64,000 bases of DNA from Escherichia phage vB_EcoM-RPN242. Under the pieces are notes generated by a model that searched no databases, had not been told where the DNA came from, and saw only the letters and a list, made by a program, of their open reading frames with translations. The DNA lies in the sequence record OL656110.1; one strand, 5' to 3'. A program made the position numbers and the translations under genes. Shown piece after piece: positions 44,229 to 53,149 of this stretch; position 1 is the stretch's first letter, and each line of letters begins with the position of its first letter.

Positions 44229-44552
44229 TTATTTGCGCAGGGCAACCACGAGTTCAGCGAGTTCACCAATGGTCGGGTCATCACCTTTACTACCCAGCCA
44301 ACCGTCGTCGATTTCGACCTGAAACTCTTCTTCTAGTTCCATTACGATTTCGATGGCATCCAGTTCGTCACCGCCGAGGTCTTTCTTGGTACGGAGACCA
44401 GCCAGCTTGTCCAGGGCGTCCTCGTTCTGAGATGCCACGTCGTCCAGCAATTTGCGCTTGTCATCGTCACGCCACAGATCCATATTCAGATTGTCAGTGG
44501 CGTACTGAGCCAGATGACGCATGACTTCAACATATGTTGGTTTACTGCTCAT
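44229..44552 (-). CDS. acyl-carrier-protein-fold protein lacking the phosphopantetheine serine (DSL -> DEL)
   Basis: 107 aa; KKDLGGDELDAIEIVMELEEEFQVEIDD parallels E. coli ACP [27 protein letters not shown]; DNA reads gac-gaa-ctg-gat, so Glu replaces the carrier Ser. Confidence 0.55.
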   Translation of the reverse strand: MSSKPTYVEVMRHLAQYATDNLNMDLWRDDDKRKLLDDVASQNEDALDKLAGLRTKKDLGGDELDAIEIVMELEEEFQVEIDDGWLGSKGDDPTIGELAELVVALRK

Positions 44553-44555
44553 GCT

Positions 44556-44590
44556 ACTTCTCCCAAAGAAAGGCGGGTTGCCCCGCCCGT
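44556..44590 (-). terminator. hairpin terminator/attenuator in leader of ACP-like gene
   Basis: ggcggg-ttgcc-cccgcc hairpin (44572..44588) followed on minus strand by CTTTCTTTGGG, about 20 nt upstream of the ATG at 44552. Confidence 0.5.
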
Positions 44591-44594
44591 TGGA

Positions 44595-46796
44595 TTAGAT
44601 TTTGATTTCTTTCTCTGTCAGTTCGGCAGTGACCTTGTACTTCACGCCATCCACTTCAACTTCCATGGTGGACTCTTCCAGGTCGAGGTCGGTGAACCAG
44701 CCGTGGCCAGCAACGATACCATACACCACTTTAGACAGTGTCTTGTTCAGGGCACGGACTTCGGTGATGGCCGCCTTGGCAGCAGCGTCGATCCAGTTTT
44801 CGATCAGCTGTTTCTGTAAGGCTTCAGGCACGGCAGTGATCATAGGAGACTTCACGAATGCTTCGTACTCTTTCAGAGCATTGGCGATGAACAAGTCACC
44901 AGCATTGAGTTTCTTGTTCTCTGCGATCTTCTTCTGTACTGCCGCGATGCTCGGTAGTGAAGACGCCCCGGCGATCTTCACGTTCAGCTCACGGCTCATG
45001 TAGAAGTCGGTAGACTCTTTGGTCTCAGTCTTCGGTGAGAAGCCGTAATCGCGGATGCCGTAGGAGGACAGGAACTCGGCCGCCTCAGCGCCGTACTGTA
45101 CTGCCAGGCCTTTGGCGTTACCCTTACCAACCAGGGCGTCTCGATAGAACTTCAGCACCTTCTGCTTGCCTTTCAGGGCTTCCAGACGGACATTATCCGC
45201 AAAGAACTGAGCAGCACTGATGTTCTTGACCATGGCGCGGTTGACCAGCGGTACGCTTTCCAGGTTCAGGACAAACACTTCCGGACCACCAAACACGTGG
45301 ACGCCCATTTCGATCAGCTTCTGTACAACTTCGATATCAGCCTTGAACGGCAGAGTCTTCACGTTAATGATACCGTCTTTGACGATGGTGTAGTTGCGCC
45401 ACTGGAAAGTATCCAGTTCTTCAGGCAGGCCAAACTTCTTCTGTGCGAATTCAGGCACAGCCACAGTACCGTGTTGAATTGTACGCACACTGATGTTCGG
45501 GCGCTCGGAGTTATAGACCAAATCACTGATTGGCACAACACCCAGATCGTTGGTAGGTTCGAACGTCGGGTTCCACTCTTCGTGCTCTGCCAGCTTGAGA
45601 GCCAGGGCTTTACGCTCTTCTTTGGACTGAGCATTCGCGATCTGTTCTGCCAGCTTGTCTTCGGTGTCGTCGGTTTTCTGCACAGTACCGCGCCCGATGC
45701 TCTTGTAGGAGAACATCGGATGCTTGGTAGCAACAGGCACACCAGCTTCAGCCAGGTACGTCAGAACATCAACGACGGTCGTCGCATCTTCGGCCGGAAC
45801 CAGGTCATAGTCAATACCGTCAACGCCGCGCAGCTGGTCATCAACGATGGCCTGGGTCAGATCGTTCTTGATGTTGGAGTAGTCCTGCTTGGTGAAGCAG
45901 TTGCTGTACTGTTTGATGAAGCGAACGTCGCCCGTCTTCTTCAGCGCAGCCCAAACCAGATCTGCGTCCATAGTGTGTACGCCGTAGAACGCCAGCACGT
46001 ATGCCGCCTGGATGTCCGCCAGGCTATCCATCTGGTCGATCATGTTAGGGTTTACAACCCACAGCTTGGTGACGCTCTCAGGGATGCTCACGTGGCCGAT
46101 AGGATGGTCTTCATCCGGCTGTACCGCCAGAACAGTTGCTACGCCGTTTTCAACATAGATAGCGTGGGTGTATAGCAGAGGCACATCAACAACCACCTTC
46201 GGTACTGATGACTTCAGCACGTTTTCCAGTTCGGTCTGGTATTCGGTCTGACCTTCGGCAAACACGTGAGTAGCACCAGAGCGTTCGGCCATCTGCGTCA
46301 GCAGTTCACGGTTACAGTGCCAGCCGTATTCGATAAATGTAATGTTATCGAAAGCAAATGGCAGGGTCTCAGCAACCAGTAGAATTTCGTTGGTACGCCA
46401 GCAGTTGTCATACCCGTCAGTCATGAACGCCAGGTTGTTGACGTAGCCAGGTTTCTTCAGGTCACGCGCAGTATCCATCGCCAGTTTCAATGGCTCAACG
46501 AATCCAGTACATCCGGACGGTTGCAGGAAGCGATCGATCAGTTTGTTCAGCTCGCTCAGGTCAGACGCAGCACCAACCTGGCGGCCAGCGAACACAGTGC
46601 CAAAGTCGCCTTTGGATGAGAAGTATAGAACACTTACAGTGTCTTCCGGTTTCACCAGGGAAGGCAGGTTCTCCTTCAGGTGCTTGCGGACTTCAGGAAG
46701 CGCACGGTACATAGAGCCGGAAATGTCTACAACGATTACATGGTTGGACGGAGCAGCAGTCGCAACCGCATTCTTAAATTCTAATGATTCAATCAT
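44595..46796 (-). CDS. large von Willebrand factor A (MIDAS) domain protein
   Basis: 733 aa from ATG 46796 (MIESLEFKN...); N-terminal vWA motifs HVIVVDISGSM (DxSxS) and FMTDGYDN; about 550 aa of unassigned C-terminal sequence. Confidence 0.65.
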   Translation of the reverse strand: MIESLEFKNAVATAAPSNHVIVVDISGSMYRALPEVRKHLKENLPSLVKPEDTVSVLYFSSKGDFGTVFAGRQVGAASDLSELNKLIDRFLQPSGCTGFVEPLKLAMDTARDLKKPGYVNNLAFMTDGYDNCWRTNEILLVAETLPFAFDNITFIEYGWHCNRELLTQMAERSGATHVFAEGQTEYQTELENVLKSSVPKVVVDVPLLYTHAIYVENGVATVLAVQPDEDHPIGHVSIPESVTKLWVVNPNMIDQMDSLADIQAAYVLAFYGVHTMDADLVWAALKKTGDVRFIKQYSNCFTKQDYSNIKNDLTQAIVDDQLRGVDGIDYDLVPAEDATTVVDVLTYLAEAGVPVATKHPMFSYKSIGRGTVQKTDDTEDKLAEQIANAQSKEERKALALKLAEHEEWNPTFEPTNDLGVVPISDLVYNSERPNISVRTIQHGTVAVPEFAQKKFGLPEELDTFQWRNYTIVKDGIINVKTLPFKADIEVVQKLIEMGVHVFGGPEVFVLNLESVPLVNRAMVKNISAAQFFADNVRLEALKGKQKVLKFYRDALVGKGNAKGLAVQYGAEAAEFLSSYGIRDYGFSPKTETKESTDFYMSRELNVKIAGASSLPSIAAVQKKIAENKKLNAGDLFIANALKEYEAFVKSPMITAVPEALQKQLIENWIDAAAKAAITEVRALNKTLSKVVYGIVAGHGWFTDLDLEESTMEVEVDGVKYKVTAELTEKEIKI

Positions 46797-47004
46797 TGTT
46801 CTCTTCGCCTTGTGCGTAAGGGTTAAGTTCAGACTCATCAGCGGCTTCGATGCGCGTCTTTACAGAGTCCAGCATATTGTTGATAAACTCACGAGACTGC
46901 TCCAGCTGAGCCAAGAGCACATCCTTTGGAGCATAGTTCTGAATGCAAGCCGGAATACTTTCAGACGTCGCCTTCAGGTCGGTAAAACATTCTTTCAGTA
47001 TCAT
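46789..47004 (-). CDS. hypothetical protein (71 aa)
   Basis: Complete ORF with ATG start; overlaps vWA gene start by 8 nt. Confidence 0.45.
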   Translation of the reverse strand: MILKECFTDLKATSESIPACIQNYAPKDVLLAQLEQSREFINNMLDSVKTRIEAADESELNPYAQGEENND

Positions 47005-47086
47005 TTGATCTCACTTAACAGAGACGACACCCTGTTGGGATTTAATAGCGGTCTTCACGCGCCAGGGGTGATAGAATCACCGTAGA

Positions 47087-47320
47087 TCAGGCCGATGTGC
47101 TCATCCAACAGGAAGTGCCCAGTTTCAAAGATCTCCCACAGGCGCTGGATAGAGCCAACCGCTTCTGAACGTCTGATGATTTGATGTGAGCATCAATCAC
47201 CACGTTCTGAACATGGCCGATAGGGATACCAGATTTTTGAATCTTGATATGTTCCTCACCACCTGGGAAGGTGAAGTGTTTGTAGAACACATCTTGGTCG
47301 TTCAATTTCAAACGAAACAT
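47087..47320 (-). CDS. hypothetical protein; reading frame appears to continue in another frame
   Basis: 77-aa ORF with ATG start; after about residue 47 a protein-like continuation (RSEAVGSIQRLWEIFETGHFLLDEHIGLIYGDSITPGA) exists in a different frame ending near 47055. Confidence 0.4.
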   Translation of the reverse strand: MFRLKLNDQDVFYKHFTFPGGEEHIKIQKSGIPIGHVQNVVIDAHIKSSDVQKRLALSSACGRSLKLGTSCWMSTSA

Positions 47321-47428
47321 AATGTAACCTCATGGTGTATTGTACAGCCGTATTATACTGTGATGTACAAATTGAAACGCCCAGCATTTACGCTGGACGT
47401 TATTGATATTGAAAAGGTTTTGACAAAC

Positions 47429-47662
47429 TCAGGATTTGGAGGAAGCGCCCTTCCATGTCTGACGTTTGTAGTGGGAAGCCATGGCCATCGACCCGGCGTA
47501 TTGCGTTTCACCCCTGACCACCACAGCCACAACCAGCTTATGTCGTAACAGGAAGTCCAGACCTGACTTAGACGGGATATCGCCAATGCTCAGTGGACCA
47601 CGATTGTACAGGGCATACATGGTGTCAAGCGCCGCCCCGGTAAAGATAATCTCTTTAGACAT
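47429..47662 (-). CDS. hypothetical protein (77 aa)
   Basis: Start at internal ATG 47662 (MSKEIIF...). Confidence 0.4.
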   Translation of the reverse strand: MSKEIIFTGAALDTMYALYNRGPLSIGDIPSKSGLDFLLRHKLVVAVVVRGETQYAGSMAMASHYKRQTWKGASSKS

Positions 47663-47669
47663 GGCGGTC

Positions 47670-47975
47670 TCACTTAAACGAGTCAACGATGGATGTAAGA
47701 ATTTCGGGGGTGGGTTTGGCGTCTTGTGGTTCACGGAAACCCACCTTTGCGATGCGGCCCAAGACATTGTACACTTCGCGCGGAAGGGTGTCTACGACCG
47801 TGTCCGACATGAACGCCACGTCTTCTTGGATGGCGTTGTATTCGGCCAGTTTAGCCAGTTCTGATTCTACCAGGGACTTCAGCTTTTGCAATGGGTCGTT
47901 GCAATAGTTGAGACGGTTGCAGTTGGTGAGCGCCTGAGTTAGATTCTCAAACGCTTCTTGTATTTCCTTTGACAT
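47670..47975 (-). CDS. hypothetical protein (101 aa)
   Basis: Start at ATG 47975 (MSKEIQEAF...). Confidence 0.45.
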   Translation of the reverse strand: MSKEIQEAFENLTQALTNCNRLNYCNDPLQKLKSLVESELAKLAEYNAIQEDVAFMSDTVVDTLPREVYNVLGRIAKVGFREPQDAKPTPEILTSIVDSFK

Positions 47976-48357
47976 TGATATGTGCCTCGTATTGTTGACA
48001 GACAACAACTACTTTACGGCACATGTCGATATCGAACAAGCCAATATGACACTCACGCTTCTTTATCCCCAGCTTATGCGCCAGCCAACTATAAGCGTCG
48101 CTCCTGCTCCTCTCTCCGCTTTTCCACAATGGGTCAAACGATCTATGGGCTTCCTGCTTAGCAGCACGGAGAGCGGCATTCGCCATCCTTCCCAAAGGTT
48201 GTCTGCCGTCGCCATGGGTATGGCAACCGACACGGGCATCACATGGAGTGCACACCCAGAACTTCAGATTGCGGAGGTCAGGGCGATGAGGGTAGAGAAC
48301 ATCACCACCGACGAATTCGGCTGGGAGGCCGCAGTAATCACAAATGACAGGTTTCAT
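47947..48357 (-). CDS. zinc-ribbon protein (DUF3268-like)
   Basis: Start at ATG 48357 (MKPVICDYCGLPAEFVGG...); second Cys cluster CTPCDARVGCH. Confidence 0.5.
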   Translation of the reverse strand: MKPVICDYCGLPAEFVGGDVLYPHRPDLRNLKFWVCTPCDARVGCHTHGDGRQPLGRMANAALRAAKQEAHRSFDPLWKSGERSRSDAYSWLAHKLGIKKRECHIGLFDIDMCRKVVVVCQQYEAHINVKGNTRSV

Positions 48358-48417
48358 ATTCTTTGTCCAAAAGAAACCCCGCACATGGCGGGGTTGCTCA
48401 GGCTGAGGTCAGACAGA

Positions 48418-48833: not shown

Positions 48834-50852
48834 TTAGAACACAACTTTCACAGTGCGGTTGAACGAACCGCTCACCTTCACGAACACGTGGTTGCGTTGG
48901 GTGGTAGAGAAGCCCAGACCGGACAGCTGCTCAGTGCTTGGCTGTACTTTAATCTTACCACCTAACATTTCAAAAACCTTGCGGTGTTTATCAAGTTCCG
49001 GCTTCAGATATTCGTTATAGAAACCACGGGTGCCGACAGGGTTAGCACAACCTTCCAGGATGAAGAACACGTGCTTGTTGCCAGTCTGCTCGCCGTCCCA
49101 ATGGTTTGGTGAGTTCAGAACCAGCTGTACCTTCTGGAAGACGGAGGTCTTGATGCCCCAGATTTCCTGAGAGCGAGCGTCGTCTTTCAGGGTAGAACTG
49201 ATGTCAACCACCTGACCAGCGCGAACCTGAACCACAACAGCCAACGTGCGATCTTTGTTGCCCAGGCCAGGGTGTGAGAAGCGCTTAGTCTGGCCTTTGT
49301 ATTCAACTTCGATTTCGAAACCAACGTCACAGGTTTCACGCTTGTTGAAGTTGGTGACATAGAACTCATAATTCCCGTCACGCAACTTGCGTTCATCGCT
49401 AAAGAAGATGTTCTCCACCGGACGGCGGTTTGGATCAATGCCGTCCATACCGTTCATGTCGATGTCCAGAGTTGCGCCAGTTGTCGAACGACGGTTGCGA
49501 AAATATACGTGGTTGTGAAGAGGATCGTTCATGCTCAGATCCAGGTCGTCGTTGTTATGCCAAGCCAGTGACACGCGGAGGAAGCTGTCGACATTGCCGC
49601 CTGCGGTCTTCACGCGCTCTTTGATGGAGTCGGCCACTTCGCCATTGTACGACCAGCTGAAGCCGTTGTTCCACTTGAACAGGTTAGGAGCGCCTGCGGT
49701 AGCCGGAGCGATCAGGGACATCAGGTTGCCAATGTGAGAGTTTTCGACCAGCACTTCTAGGGAATGCGCCTTTGGCAACACGTTGGTCAGGAAGTCGTCG
49801 ATCGTGATCTCTTCAACCTTGTCCAGGGACTTTGTCGGAGTCTTCACTTCAGACGCCAGCTGAGCAAACGGGTCCATCTTCTTCTGAGCTGCCAGATCGG
49901 CGAACAGAACGTTGTTGATGGTCAGATCGTCATACACGGCATAACGGCGACCCAGTGAATCAGTCAGACCCAGCGCTTCGACTTCTTTCTGCGCGTTTTC
50001 AATCATCGACTTCGTGACCAGCGCGGTTGGGCGCTTGTAGTTCGTCGGAGCGACTTTGGCTTCAAAGGACTTCACGGCGGTTTCCAGATCCCGGCCTTCA
50101 TTGAGGTCTACCAGCAGAGAGCCAATCACGGTATTACGAATGCCGTGAGGGGTATGACCGTTTGCACGGTAGCCAGTGCGCCAAGCCCACAGAGCGCGTT
50201 TCTCTTCTGCAGTTTGTTCGTACAGGGTCTTGTTCACCACGAACGCCTGCACTGCCGCTTTGTGCTCTTCACCGCGATACAGAGAATTCTGGTCGATCAA
50301 TTCCAGAACGATTTCAGCCGATTCCAGAGACAGTTCACGCAGGCCGCGCTCAAACACTTCAATCGCCTGGCGGATTTCACCCTTCTTAGAAGCGATGGTA
50401 TCTGCCCGCAGAACATAGCTGCTCAGCAGGTCGGTGTGGAAGTGGTTGTAGGTGCGGACAATACCGTCTTTCATTTCGTGATTCGACCCAACACCAACTT
50501 TCTTGGTGTCGTTGAAGTACACGTCGACGATTGCGTGCTGCTTAACATATGCTGACAGCGCCGCAGCGACAACGTCGTATTCGTTACCCAACTGAATGTT
50601 ATCCCAGATAGAGATCACGTTCAGGTCGGAGTCGATGGTGACCACACCGCCGATGTTACGGATGAATTGTTTACAGCAGGTGCAGTCGTGCTCGGTACGC
50701 TCACGATAAAGCGGGTTAGTGCCAGCAGGGAAAGAAGACAGATACAGATCCCACAGAGCATCTTTATCGATGTTGGTCATGAACAGACCAGTTGCTGACA
50801 TGGCCCGCACGTTATTGTTGACAGCTACTGCGAAGGACTTAAAATCTGACAT
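48834..50852 (-). CDS. large hypothetical protein (672 aa) with N-terminal Cys cluster
   Basis: ATG start with AGGAAGATTACATC leader; HDCTCCKQF near N-terminus; no Walker or polymerase motifs recognised. Confidence 0.7.
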   Translation of the reverse strand: MSDFKSFAVAVNNNVRAMSATGLFMTNIDKDALWDLYLSSFPAGTNPLYRERTEHDCTCCKQFIRNIGGVVTIDSDLNVISIWDNIQLGNEYDVVAAALSAYVKQHAIVDVYFNDTKKVGVGSNHEMKDGIVRTYNHFHTDLLSSYVLRADTIASKKGEIRQAIEVFERGLRELSLESAEIVLELIDQNSLYRGEEHKAAVQAFVVNKTLYEQTAEEKRALWAWRTGYRANGHTPHGIRNTVIGSLLVDLNEGRDLETAVKSFEAKVAPTNYKRPTALVTKSMIENAQKEVEALGLTDSLGRRYAVYDDLTINNVLFADLAAQKKMDPFAQLASEVKTPTKSLDKVEEITIDDFLTNVLPKAHSLEVLVENSHIGNLMSLIAPATAGAPNLFKWNNGFSWSYNGEVADSIKERVKTAGGNVDSFLRVSLAWHNNDDLDLSMNDPLHNHVYFRNRRSTTGATLDIDMNGMDGIDPNRRPVENIFFSDERKLRDGNYEFYVTNFNKRETCDVGFEIEVEYKGQTKRFSHPGLGNKDRTLAVVVQVRAGQVVDISSTLKDDARSQEIWGIKTSVFQKVQLVLNSPNHWDGEQTGNKHVFFILEGCANPVGTRGFYNEYLKPELDKHRKVFEMLGGKIKVQPSTEQLSGLGFSTTQRNHVFVKVSGSFNRTVKVVF

Positions 50853-50966: not shown

Positions 50967-51955
50967 TTATTCAGAAGAACCATATCGTTCTGTCCATTTA
51001 GGACATTTCAAAGGTTCCCACCCTCTATTGAAACGTTCGATAATGCTGTTTGTCGCATTAAAAGCCTTCAGGTCTTTTGTTCTGTACACATGCATGAGGG
51101 CTTCCGCTCTTTTCATTGTTTTTATTGCTTCAAGGAATTTATCAGCTTTTGACCAATACGCATCATTGTCGGGGTTCCATTTACCCTTCTCCCAAGGCAT
51201 CTTAGCCAACATGCCTTTCTGAGCGTTTTCTTTCTGTTTGGCGCGTTGCTCTGGTGTGAATGAGTTGGTTAAGTCCTTCCCATAATTGGGATTGAGTTCC
51301 CCAAGTTTAGCTTTACTGGCACGTTCAGAAAATTGTTCTAAATCTATGTTGGCGCGGCGTTTCTCTAAAACCCGCCTTTTATATTCAGGATCAGAAGCCA
51401 TCCTTTCATGGATTTTCATCAATCCTTTGGTAATTTTCTTGACTTGCTCTGGGGTTCTCTTATATCCATATTGGGGATTATTCTTTCCTCTTCTCCCATA
51501 CATTGGGTTGTTTGCCCCGACGCATTTGGAGACACCCTTTGTGAGTTTGGATATTCTTTGTCCAAATTCTTTCCTTAACTTTTCGTAAAGGTGAGAATTA
51601 AATTTTATACCCGTTGGTGTATACCTACCCCCACGGCTCATCAAAAGAACAGCATATACCATATCAGAATTCGGGAAAGCCAAGGCCAAGCATACATGGA
51701 CAAGATAATGTTGTCTGCCTGTTAATCGAACCAAATTTATCTTATCTTTAGAATATTCAGGGAACATGCTCTTGGGAAGGATGTGGTGCAATTCAGTGTA
51801 GTCACCATCAGAATATTTGAAAGATTGAACCATCATCAAATACTTCTTGATGAAATGCGGTTTACCGCCTTTAGAAATCAATAATTCGTAAAACATAACA
51901 GGAACTCCAAATGAAAGTTCCTGTTATAATATACTTTCTTAACTCACAAAGTAAG
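50860..51955 (-). mobile_element. free-standing homing-endonuclease insertion (candidate mobile element)
   Basis: AT-rich island holding only the HNH gene, inserted between two conserved-looking genes and bounded by intergenic AT-rich sequence on both sides. Confidence 0.45.
50967..51896 (-). CDS. HNH homing endonuclease with NUMOD-like repeats
   Basis: 309 aa; HNH core ELHHILPKS ... N ... H; repeated NPMYGRRGKNNPQYG and NPNYGK motifs; ATG start with GGAG RBS. Confidence 0.75.
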   Translation of the reverse strand: MFYELLISKGGKPHFIKKYLMMVQSFKYSDGDYTELHHILPKSMFPEYSKDKINLVRLTGRQHYLVHVCLALAFPNSDMVYAVLLMSRGGRYTPTGIKFNSHLYEKLRKEFGQRISKLTKGVSKCVGANNPMYGRRGKNNPQYGYKRTPEQVKKITKGLMKIHERMASDPEYKRRVLEKRRANIDLEQFSERASKAKLGELNPNYGKDLTNSFTPEQRAKQKENAQKGMLAKMPWEKGKWNPDNDAYWSKADKFLEAIKTMKRAEALMHVYRTKDLKAFNATNSIIERFNRGWEPLKCPKWTERYGSSE

Positions 51956-53149
51956 TTACTTTTTAAATAAATTTAGTAGGTTTTTAGAACCAGATGTCGC
52001 TTTAGGTTGTCCTTCCCCATCGTATCCAACCTTCCCGCGCGGTTTTTTACCTTGCTGTACAGCCTCTACACAACGGGTATATTTCTGAAGTTCACAAAAC
52101 ATATTTTCTCCTGCCATTATATTTAAATGGCGATCCCAAGGCTCTTCCACAGACCAAAATTCTTCCCTGTTATACCCAAGAGGACCATAAACTGCGTCCT
52201 GGTTGTCCCGTAGCCAGAAGATGCATTCTTCGTGGGTCATACCGTCTTTGTTCAGGAACAGCAGATCAATACCTGCGCGACAGCCTGGTCCAGCAACCGT
52301 GAAGTGGTTCTCACTGAAAGGATATTCAGGAATGTAAGTGAAGTCTACCCAGATCTGATAGGCCAGGAATGGACCAAGCCCTTCGATGTCGTCATACATG
52401 CGCTGGTATACTTCCAAAGGAGTACCAAGGCGCAGCAGGTCATGGAAATAATTTGGATACTTGTTGACGAATGCCTTCAGGGAGCGGATGACACGCATTG
52501 GCATGTACGGTTCCCAACCTTCGATGGTGTAGAAGTCCGGCTCTGCTTCGGCTATCGCCTTGGCTTCTTTATAATCCATGTTCTGGGTTGAACCGTCTTT
52601 ACAGATCAGATTCACCATCATCCCACCGAAGCGCTGCTCCTTGTGGTTGACAACCATCTCAGGGAAAGCCAGGCATTGCTTCAGGCCGCCCGTGTTGAAG
52701 GCATTGGTGAATACCTTACCGCCGTCGGCCTCGAACTTCTGAAGTCGTTCGCGGGTTGCATCGAGGTTGATCTCGGCGAATTCTTTGATCGTCATCGCGC
52801 CGCCGATAGCCTGGATTGGATCCCAGAGGTTGAACATGCGGAACATCACGCAGTTGAACATCTTGTCGGCCATACCCAGAGCATCGTTGTTGACAATGTT
52901 GTTGATCAGGTTGAGAGACTGCCTGTCGTGCTCTCTCCGGACATTACAGAACTTGACCTGCCGTAGTATGGGATTATCAGTCCAAGGAGCAGGAAGGCGC
53001 TGGACGTCCTTCTTGACGTGGATCTGATAACGATCGCGCATCCATTCGTAAGACAGGCGGGTATGGGTCGGACTGAGAACCGGTTTGGCCGACTTTATCT
53101 TTTCTTCACGGACACCGCAGTACGGGACGTCTAGGGCTTTATCTTTCAT
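51956..53149 (-). CDS. hypothetical enzyme-sized protein (397 aa)
   Basis: ATG start with AAGAGGATACC leader; no motif recognised. Confidence 0.65.
   Translation of the reverse strand: MKDKALDVPYCGVREEKIKSAKPVLSPTHTRLSYEWMRDRYQIHVKKDVQRLPAPWTDNPILRQVKFCNVRREHDRQSLNLINNIVNNDALGMADKMFNCVMFRMFNLWDPIQAIGGAMTIKEFAEINLDATRERLQKFEADGGKVFTNAFNTGGLKQCLAFPEMVVNHKEQRFGGMMVNLICKDGSTQNMDYKEAKAIAEAEPDFYTIEGWEPYMPMRVIRSLKAFVNKYPNYFHDLLRLGTPLEVYQRMYDDIEGLGPFLAYQIWVDFTYIPEYPFSENHFTVAGPGCRAGIDLLFLNKDGMTHEECIFWLRDNQDAVYGPLGYNREEFWSVEEPWDRHLNIMAGENMFCELQKYTRCVEAVQQGKKPRGKVGYDGEGQPKATSGSKNLLNLFKK

Follow-up and report, generated by a model that had tools for sequence, protein, structure and literature searches.

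A phage-restricted vWA protein with an intact MIDAS, a predicted ArnB-type core and an orphan C-terminal module: a tentative intracellular adaptor

In a 64,000-nucleotide stretch of Escherichia phage vB_EcoM-RPN242 (OL656110.1; the whole stretch is called the window below), a minus-strand gene at 44595..46796 (stop codon included) encodes a 733 residue protein (81 kDa, pI 5.1) of the von Willebrand factor A (vWA) family. Its vWA domain carries a complete MIDAS (an adhesion site that depends on a metal ion) and is followed, in the predicted structure, by a beta-sandwich and helical bundle of the type found in archaeal ArnB and by a long family-specific C-terminal module. Tentatively, and with somewhat less than even confidence, we read this protein as a soluble, non-virion, intracellular adaptor or scaffold that joins proteins in a metal-dependent way and needs no dedicated AAA+ partner. 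vWA/MIDAS domains generally bind a partner protein through the MIDAS metal, and binding to partner proteins is how ArnB, 4fx5 of Catenulispora and the Sec23/24 core all work.

Residues are numbered here by the full open reading frame (ORF) from the first ATG (44595..46838, 747 residues); subtracting 14 gives the numbers of the 733 residue protein, and every gene, domain, motif and hairpin placed by coordinates lies on the minus strand. The second ATG, at 46796, overlaps the stop of the upstream gene (ATGATTGA) and sits after a purine-rich stretch, neither of which was found in the start-codon context of the ATG at 46838; in addition, homologs are 733–734 residues long, matching a start at 46796, and the phrog_2426 profile (1230 bits, E = 0) aligns residues 15–747 with its positions 2–736 of 736. 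On these grounds 46796, which an earlier note made from the letters of the window alone had given as the start, is the likelier one. The vWA domain, a Rossmann-like alpha/beta fold (residues ~31–212; 46203..46748), was matched by Pfam VWA over residues 34–198 (E = 1.3e-6, above the gathering score). Translation places the MIDAS DxSxS motif at DISGS (D38, S40, S42; 46713..46727), the MIDAS Thr at T111 (46506..46508, inside GCTGF at 46500-46514) and the MIDAS aspartate at D141 in TDGYDN (46404..46421); all of these residues are invariant in 70 homologs with identities down to 34%, as are G142 and N145 of TDGYDN. Fold and motif set together place the protein in the vWA/MIDAS superfamily. The same note had reported a complete MIDAS set at the N-terminus, which is what the DNA encodes, and had thought metal-dependent ligand binding plausible, which a complete and invariant set bears out.

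An AlphaFold2 model built from a 70-sequence alignment was confident (pLDDT 89.4, pTM 0.75), and its structural comparison covered the PDB and BFVD. Between 264 and 285 residues of the model aligned to the PDB entries 8s05_B, 4fx5_A and 5a8j_A, at a sequence identity of just 13–16% to these proteins, i.e., the Sulfolobus vWA regulators ArnB/ArnE (8s05, 5a8j) and 4fx5. In the model, the vWA domain leads in the same chain into a small beta-sandwich (residues 213–264; 46047..46202), which the N-terminal strand at residues 16–20 (46779-46793) may join by analogy with ArnB, and then into a helical bundle (residues 265–334; 45837..46046) that matches the same entries as the core (8s05, 4fx5, 5a8j) and would correspond to the helical domain at the C-terminus of ArnB-type proteins. 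With this order of domains in a model of pLDDT 89, the N-terminal third, sandwich and bundle have the predicted architecture of archaeal ArnB, Catenulispora 4fx5 and the Sec23/24 core. ArnB has been described as a vWA domain with an eight-stranded beta-sandwich and a C-terminal helical bundle, with a metal ion in the MIDAS, and the same arrangement was pointed out in 4fx5, E. coli YfbK and the Sec23/24 core (PMC12852372). What is new here is the model-based assignment of residues 213–334 of the phage protein to this core.

The likeness to these systems has its limits. The phage protein is about twice the length of ArnB or 4fx5, having an extra ~413-residue module absent from both, and its sandwich has ~6 strands rather than the 8 of ArnB. 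An ArnA-type FHA/zinc-finger partner is not conserved beside the phage gene, and no kinase/phosphatase circuit is evident. A zinc finger binds the core in trans in ArnA and in cis in Sec23/24; the phage protein itself contains none, and in the Ackermannviridae the putative transcription unit of the gene includes one for a DUF3268 zinc-finger protein. Zinc-ribbon ORFs, considered as ArnA-like partners, were not enriched near the gene outside the Ackermannviridae (10/45 within 2 kb versus 8/45 at 4–6 kb). Sec23 and Sec24, of the COPII inner coat, have no functional MIDAS, an N-terminal zinc finger, a gelsolin-like C-terminal domain and a membrane role with Sar1, none of which was found in the phage protein, whose MIDAS is intact and whose model gave no gelsolin match.

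The remainder of the protein is a family-specific module of mixed alpha/beta structure (residues 335–747, ~413 residues; 44598..45836). The ~549 residues beyond the Pfam vWA match had no Pfam, PADLOC or PDB-sequence match, an NCBIfam scan of the protein gave sub-threshold matches in the vWA region only, and profile searches with the C-terminal part against PDB sequences and Pfam returned noise only. The C-terminal model matched no catalytic fold, gelsolin, Sec23/24, Ku barrel or TROVE/HEAT structure in the PDB; nor did it match, in the PDB or BFVD, any tail-fibre or virion domain, the kind of match that according to the earlier note would have made this an ordinary structural protein. Foldseek against BFVD found family members only, plus the Bacillus phage SP-15 protein A0A127AX08 (361 residues, E = 3e-10, 12% identity). 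As the Foldseek and profile searches of the module gave no relative outside the family, the ~413 residues appear, on the model, to be without a known relative or a counterpart in solved structures. Along with the negative results for AAA+ partners and for association with virions given below, these ~410 well-modelled residues are the other new element of this analysis. About 550 residues had previously been left unassigned, and at the level of sequence families this stands; ~120 of them (213–334) now have the ArnB-type structural assignment, leaving ~413, and for ~410 residues the lack of a recognised motif extends to solved structures. The description of this region as large and beta-rich did not survive, the model having 44% helix and 25% strand over the C-terminal part, and 43% and 25% over residues 335–747. 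Mean column identity is 0.52 in the module versus 0.59 in the vWA domain, and therefore the whole length of the protein is under constraint. The most conserved motifs of the module are RPNIS, RNYTIVKDG, GIRDYGFSPK and ELNVKIxGxSSLP, and it is rich in invariant polar residues (e.g., R446, N448, D488, K560 and D597). A basic helical sub-domain at residues 533–712 (average charge +6, consistent across the family) stands out in the otherwise acidic protein. Separately, the SP-15 protein resembles the C-terminal module and has no vWA domain, and the structural match suggests that it is a stand-alone copy of the module.

The gene is a member of phrog_2426 (function listed as unknown), and the "VWA domain-containing protein" of the Ackermannviridae, RB16p109, KP27_128 and AR9 gp067 are the same protein family (E = 0 over the full length for phrog_2426). 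A word-indexed search identified 214 homologs, nearly all of 700–790 and mostly of 715–790 residues, with 94–99% query coverage and identities down to 34%. By tblastn against 50,697 phage records the family was found in 503, among them Ackermannviridae, Slopekvirus (KP15/KP27), RB16/RB43-like phages and T4 relatives of Cronobacter and Citrobacter, Pseudomonas phage pf16, Rhizobium T4-like phages and Bacillus phage AR9 (25.7% identity over 92% of the length); it is also present in many jumbo phages, and its IMG/VR loci are on contigs of 140–450 kb. A C-terminal profile run against 1.84 billion representatives of 50% identity clusters gave at least 1371 matches at E ≤ 0.001 (888 at E ≤ 1e-30). 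Among the best 150 of the 1371 the module always extends from about residue 250–300 to the end of a 700–820 residue protein, the shorter entries looking truncated, and because these matches share the position of the module we take the two-part architecture to be fixed. In prokaryotes (one genome for each of 185,579 species) there were 11 loci only, mostly on contigs of metagenome-assembled genomes or on whole-phage contigs; the family is thus phage-restricted and almost absent from cellular genomes. One distant member, P0098 (L088, an 87 kb contig of Logan SRR26673770), lies beside TrfA, a response regulator, a tRNA synthetase and a sigma-70 gene, which suggests a further occurrence of the family, on a plasmid or a phage-plasmid.

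Source annotations of family members are all "hypothetical" or "VWA domain-containing", bar three "tail protein" or "minor tail protein" records, and databases already hold hundreds of entries for the gene, named hypothetical or VWA protein, with no assigned function. It represents a well-delimited orphan family and not a surprising discovery. With at least 1371 clusters at 50% identity and a presence in ~1% of deposited phage genomes it is among the larger uncharacterized gene families of big virulent phages, its carriers include therapeutic candidates (Kuttervirus, Agtrevirus, Limestonevirus and Slopekvirus), and its two-part architecture has been kept from Enterobacteria phages to Bacillus phage AR9. 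An intracellular vWA protein that has an intact MIDAS and no AAA+ partner is unusual for prokaryotic systems. Knowing its ligand would probably bring to light a step that is general to infection by large myoviruses, and a solved structure could add a new fold and would extend the ArnB/Sec23-24 core architecture to viruses.

How such an adaptor would work can be sketched. With no transmembrane segment, hydrophobic segment or signal peptide in its sequence, and an acidic composition (pI 5.1, net charge –26; family mean –17), the protein is predicted to be soluble and cytoplasmic. A divalent cation bound at the MIDAS would complete its coordination through an acidic (Asp/Glu) or phosphorylated side chain of the partner, and the C-terminal ~410-residue module would bind or act on a second component. 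When the ORFs of 82 loci were clustered by all-against-all BLAST, no neighbor gene was common across lineages and every recurrent neighbor was lineage-specific. As phages of both Gram-negative and Gram-positive bacteria carry the family, which has no conserved neighbor, the partner is probably a universally conserved host component or a core large-myovirus protein encoded elsewhere in the genome. Several points weigh against the adaptor reading: no partner emerged from the analysis, and literature searches found no experiment on any family member; the invariant polar residues of the module would suit the active site of an enzyme no less than a surface for binding; the structure comes from prediction and was compared with the PDB and BFVD only; the late-rising expression of the AR9 homolog would also fit a role in assembly; and "adaptor" is a generic term, the evidence constraining the mode of action (MIDAS-mediated binding) far more than the biological role.

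The polar residues lead to the first alternative, that the last ~410 residues form an enzyme domain of a new kind, with DNA, nucleotides or a protein as possible substrates, and that the vWA/MIDAS part merely targets or regulates it. The module is as conserved as the vWA domain, and many of its invariant or near-invariant polar residues fall in RPNIS, RNYTIVKDG and GIRDYGFSPK; moreover, the Ackermannviridae gene is near the thymidine-hypermodification gene HMUDK_hel/aGPT-Pplase, with ADDT elsewhere in the genome, and other phages place the gene among replication and repair genes (Pif1-like helicase, ligase and topoisomerase). We nevertheless think an enzyme unlikely, given a module that resembles no catalytic fold in the PDB, belongs to no Pfam family and has no conserved neighbor. 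A link to thymidine hypermodification in particular is unlikely because members are also carried by phages for which no such modification is known (RB43/RB16, KP15/KP27-like phages, and AR9 with its uracil DNA).

Of the vWA/MIDAS proteins that work inside prokaryotic cells, most are paired with an AAA+ ATPase of the MoxR class, and the phage protein could be a vWA cochaperone of a host ATPase (MoxR/RavA-type, FtsH or Clp) or of a distant phage AAA+ ATPase, to which it would deliver a substrate for remodelling or virion assembly. MoxR-associated vWA cochaperones (ViaA, CbbO, NorD, BchD and the vWA protein of the jumbo-phage MoxR-vWA-peptidase pair) are likewise intracellular, have an intact MIDAS and are expected to grip an acidic residue of their target; jumbo-phage loci of the family have an FtsH-like AAA+ protease 8–10 kb off, and in one locus ClpP is next door; and late-rising expression in AR9 would suit assembly. 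However, genuine MoxR-vWA pairs are encoded adjacently, the cochaperone beside its AAA+ ATPase, whereas an adjacent AAA+ gene was found in 0/82 loci, and with it the adjacent, operonic MoxR-class gene that marks such a pair is missing. The Pfam-labelled neighborhoods of seven distant members contained no MoxR, and neither the annotation nor a Pfam scan of the larger unannotated ORFs revealed a MoxR-type AAA+ gene in the complete genome of Yersinia phage CAU_YEP3, an Ackermannviridae relative with ~91% DNA identity here. The earlier note, which had seen no AAA+ partner nearby and had proposed a check for one elsewhere in the genome, is thus upheld on the first count and answered, in CAU_YEP3, on the second. 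Host MoxR is not universal across the Enterobacteria, Bacillus, Rhizobium, Vibrio and Pseudomonas hosts, and AR9 holds, besides its phrog_2426 homolog, a separate AAA+/vWA-peptidase pair (g028/g029), the one discussed for jumbo phages in PMC7824862. All in all, a cochaperone role seems to us unlikely.

A Ku- or Ro60-like nucleic-acid binder, acting on DNA ends or misfolded RNA in replication, recombination or RNA repair, would suit the genomic surroundings. In CAU_YEP3 the gene is in a long leftward block of DNA-metabolism genes, with a gp46/47-like exonuclease, the late sigma factor, RNase H, a helicase and spanins on one side and aGPT-Pplase, MazG, RegA, the clamp loader and the clamp on the other; the Pfam-labelled surroundings of the seven distant members include RecJ, a Pif1-like helicase, ligase, topoisomerase, CCA-adding enzyme, PTH2 and peptide deformylase, with one plasmid-like context with TrfA, and RecJ, CCA-adding enzyme, PTH2 and HD lie near the gene in jumbo-phage loci. 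The consistently basic sub-domain at 533–712 would also fit, and Ku and Ro60 both contain vWA domains. Yet Ku70 aligns over 207 residues only, approximately the size of the vWA domain, and the beta-barrel ring and C-terminal arm that follow the vWA domain in Ku70/Ku80 were not found; Ro60 has its HEAT-repeat ring at the N-terminus and its vWA domain at the C-terminus, the opposite order, and TROVE/HEAT was not matched by the C-terminal model. The protein is also strongly acidic, and the MIDAS, lost in Ku, is invariant here. Of the layouts suggested previously, that of Ro60 is not supported, and we regard a Ku- or Ro60-like function as improbable.

A bolder version of the adaptor reading draws on the gene directly downstream (44229..44552; Pfam PP-binding), which encodes a protein resembling acyl carrier protein (ACP). 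In this ACP-like protein the phosphopantetheine-bearing Ser is replaced by Glu (LGGDELDAIEIV), and Glu or Asp is at that position in 23/23 Ackermannviridae loci (GGD[ED]LD, FDELD or MDELD); the protein therefore cannot serve as an ordinary carrier, and it may mimic ACP. In the bolder version the family would be a class of MIDAS adaptors, new and specific to phages, that work without AAA+ proteins, an ArnB/Sec23-24-type core being joined to a module of unseen fold; by way of the metal site, such an adaptor would seize an acidic residue on a host protein that is itself highly acidic and universally conserved. The Ackermannviridae pseudo-ACP would then be the MIDAS ligand dedicated to it, or would imitate host ACP, and the pair would be tied to a hijack of ACP-dependent host machinery. 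We offer this as a speculation with a distinctly small chance of being right. By tblastn the ACP-like gene is restricted to the Ackermannviridae, and in a co-distribution check it and a 672 residue neighbor spread differently across phages than the vWA family; as neighbors, the ACP-like, 672 residue, 123 residue and DUF3268 genes were confined to the Ackermannviridae and a single further contig.

The protein is not a virion component. CsCl-purified Sajous1 virions gave 1 spectrum for the VWA protein versus 924 for the capsid protein, a count at the level of the clamp loader, dUTPase and thymidylate synthase (PMC10892097), and the AR9 record, which marks virion proteins, does not mark the homolog gp067. 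In the 44.0–53.4 kb stretch searched, a T4-type late promoter resembling TATAAATA was found before no gene start. Transcripts of the AR9 homolog were at 0.96, 105.6 and 431.5 fragments per kilobase per million mapped reads at 5, 20 and 40 min (PMC5312081 Table S4); it is not an early gene in AR9, and expression of the family probably falls in the middle to late phase, not the immediate-early one. As to published data on the function, transcription or essentiality of the family, the searches turned up only the Sajous1 virion mass spectrometry and the AR9 expression tables, and none of the Tn-seq, HIDEN-SEQ and CRISPRi-ART hits checked was on a phage carrying it. That this is a minor tail or injected protein, as the three GenBank records naming it "tail protein" or "minor tail protein" have it, is very improbable indeed: the silence of the AR9 homolog at 5 min, like that of late genes, and the single Sajous1 spectrum would fit, but one spectrum is contaminant level, the AR9 homolog is unmarked, the gene sits away from the structural modules and has no late-promoter motif, the model resembles no tail or fibre structure, and the PHROG function is unknown.

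With respect to its genome, the 2.2-kb stretch of the gene has a DNA identity of 96% to Escherichia phage AV101, whose copy of the protein is 98% identical, and megablast with this stretch matched 231 phage records, nearly all Ackermannviridae (Agtrevirus, Kuttervirus, Limestonevirus and Taipeivirus-like); from these matches the window is part of an Ag3-like Ackermannviridae genome. As previously described, the vWA gene is co-oriented with the ACP-like gene (44229-44552) and a zinc-finger gene, the latter being the DUF3268 gene (47947..48384; Pfam E = 2.7e-37), which is first in a putative transcription unit that ends with the vWA gene. A pattern scan identified a terminator-like GC-rich hairpin with a T-run right after the vWA stop and before the ACP-like gene (44571..44588; fold –18.3 kcal/mol, z = –2.0) and another terminator-like hairpin just upstream of the DUF3268 gene (48375-48395), and these two would bracket the putative unit of DUF3268 gene, small genes and vWA gene. 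The small gene immediately upstream (46789..47004, 71 residues), whose stop overlaps the vWA start codon, has homologs only in Ackermannviridae loci. Within the unit, the ~1.2 kb of DNA at 46800-47994, directly upstream of the vWA gene, is unrelated to the ~1.7 kb found there in CAU_YEP3, where the flanks are 91–94% identical and the replacement carries a 264 residue Phage_gp49_66 gene; from this comparison the stretch looks to be a replaceable cassette of small genes. It includes a ~77 residue protein (47429-47662; motif SGAxLDV...PSKSG, no Pfam match) whose homologs in RB43/KP15-like T4 relatives lie 3–4.5 kb upstream of the vWA gene (loci L025, L026, L029, L031, L032 and L035, at 3.1–5.1 kb); it was the only non-vWA ORF from this part of the window to be also near the gene in another lineage.

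Farther upstream, the 672 residue ORF (48834-50852) belongs to phrog_1735, another large orphan family, and had no Pfam, NCBIfam, PADLOC or PDB-sequence match. This family is in 556 phage records, including Ackermannviridae, phiCbK, Bacillus BC01, SP-15, Xp12-like phages, Microcystis LMM01 and Vibrio VmeM-32; several phrog_1735-bearing phages have modified DNA, and in the window the ORF lies beside the thymidine-hypermodification gene. The latter is of the HMUDK_hel/aGPT-Pplase type, a marker of thymidine hypermodification (51956-53149; E = 1.8e-78), and between it and the 672 residue gene is an HNH/NUMOD3 homing-endonuclease gene (50967-51896), at the position of which CAU_YEP3 has only a short "homing endonuclease" ORF of ~72 residues.

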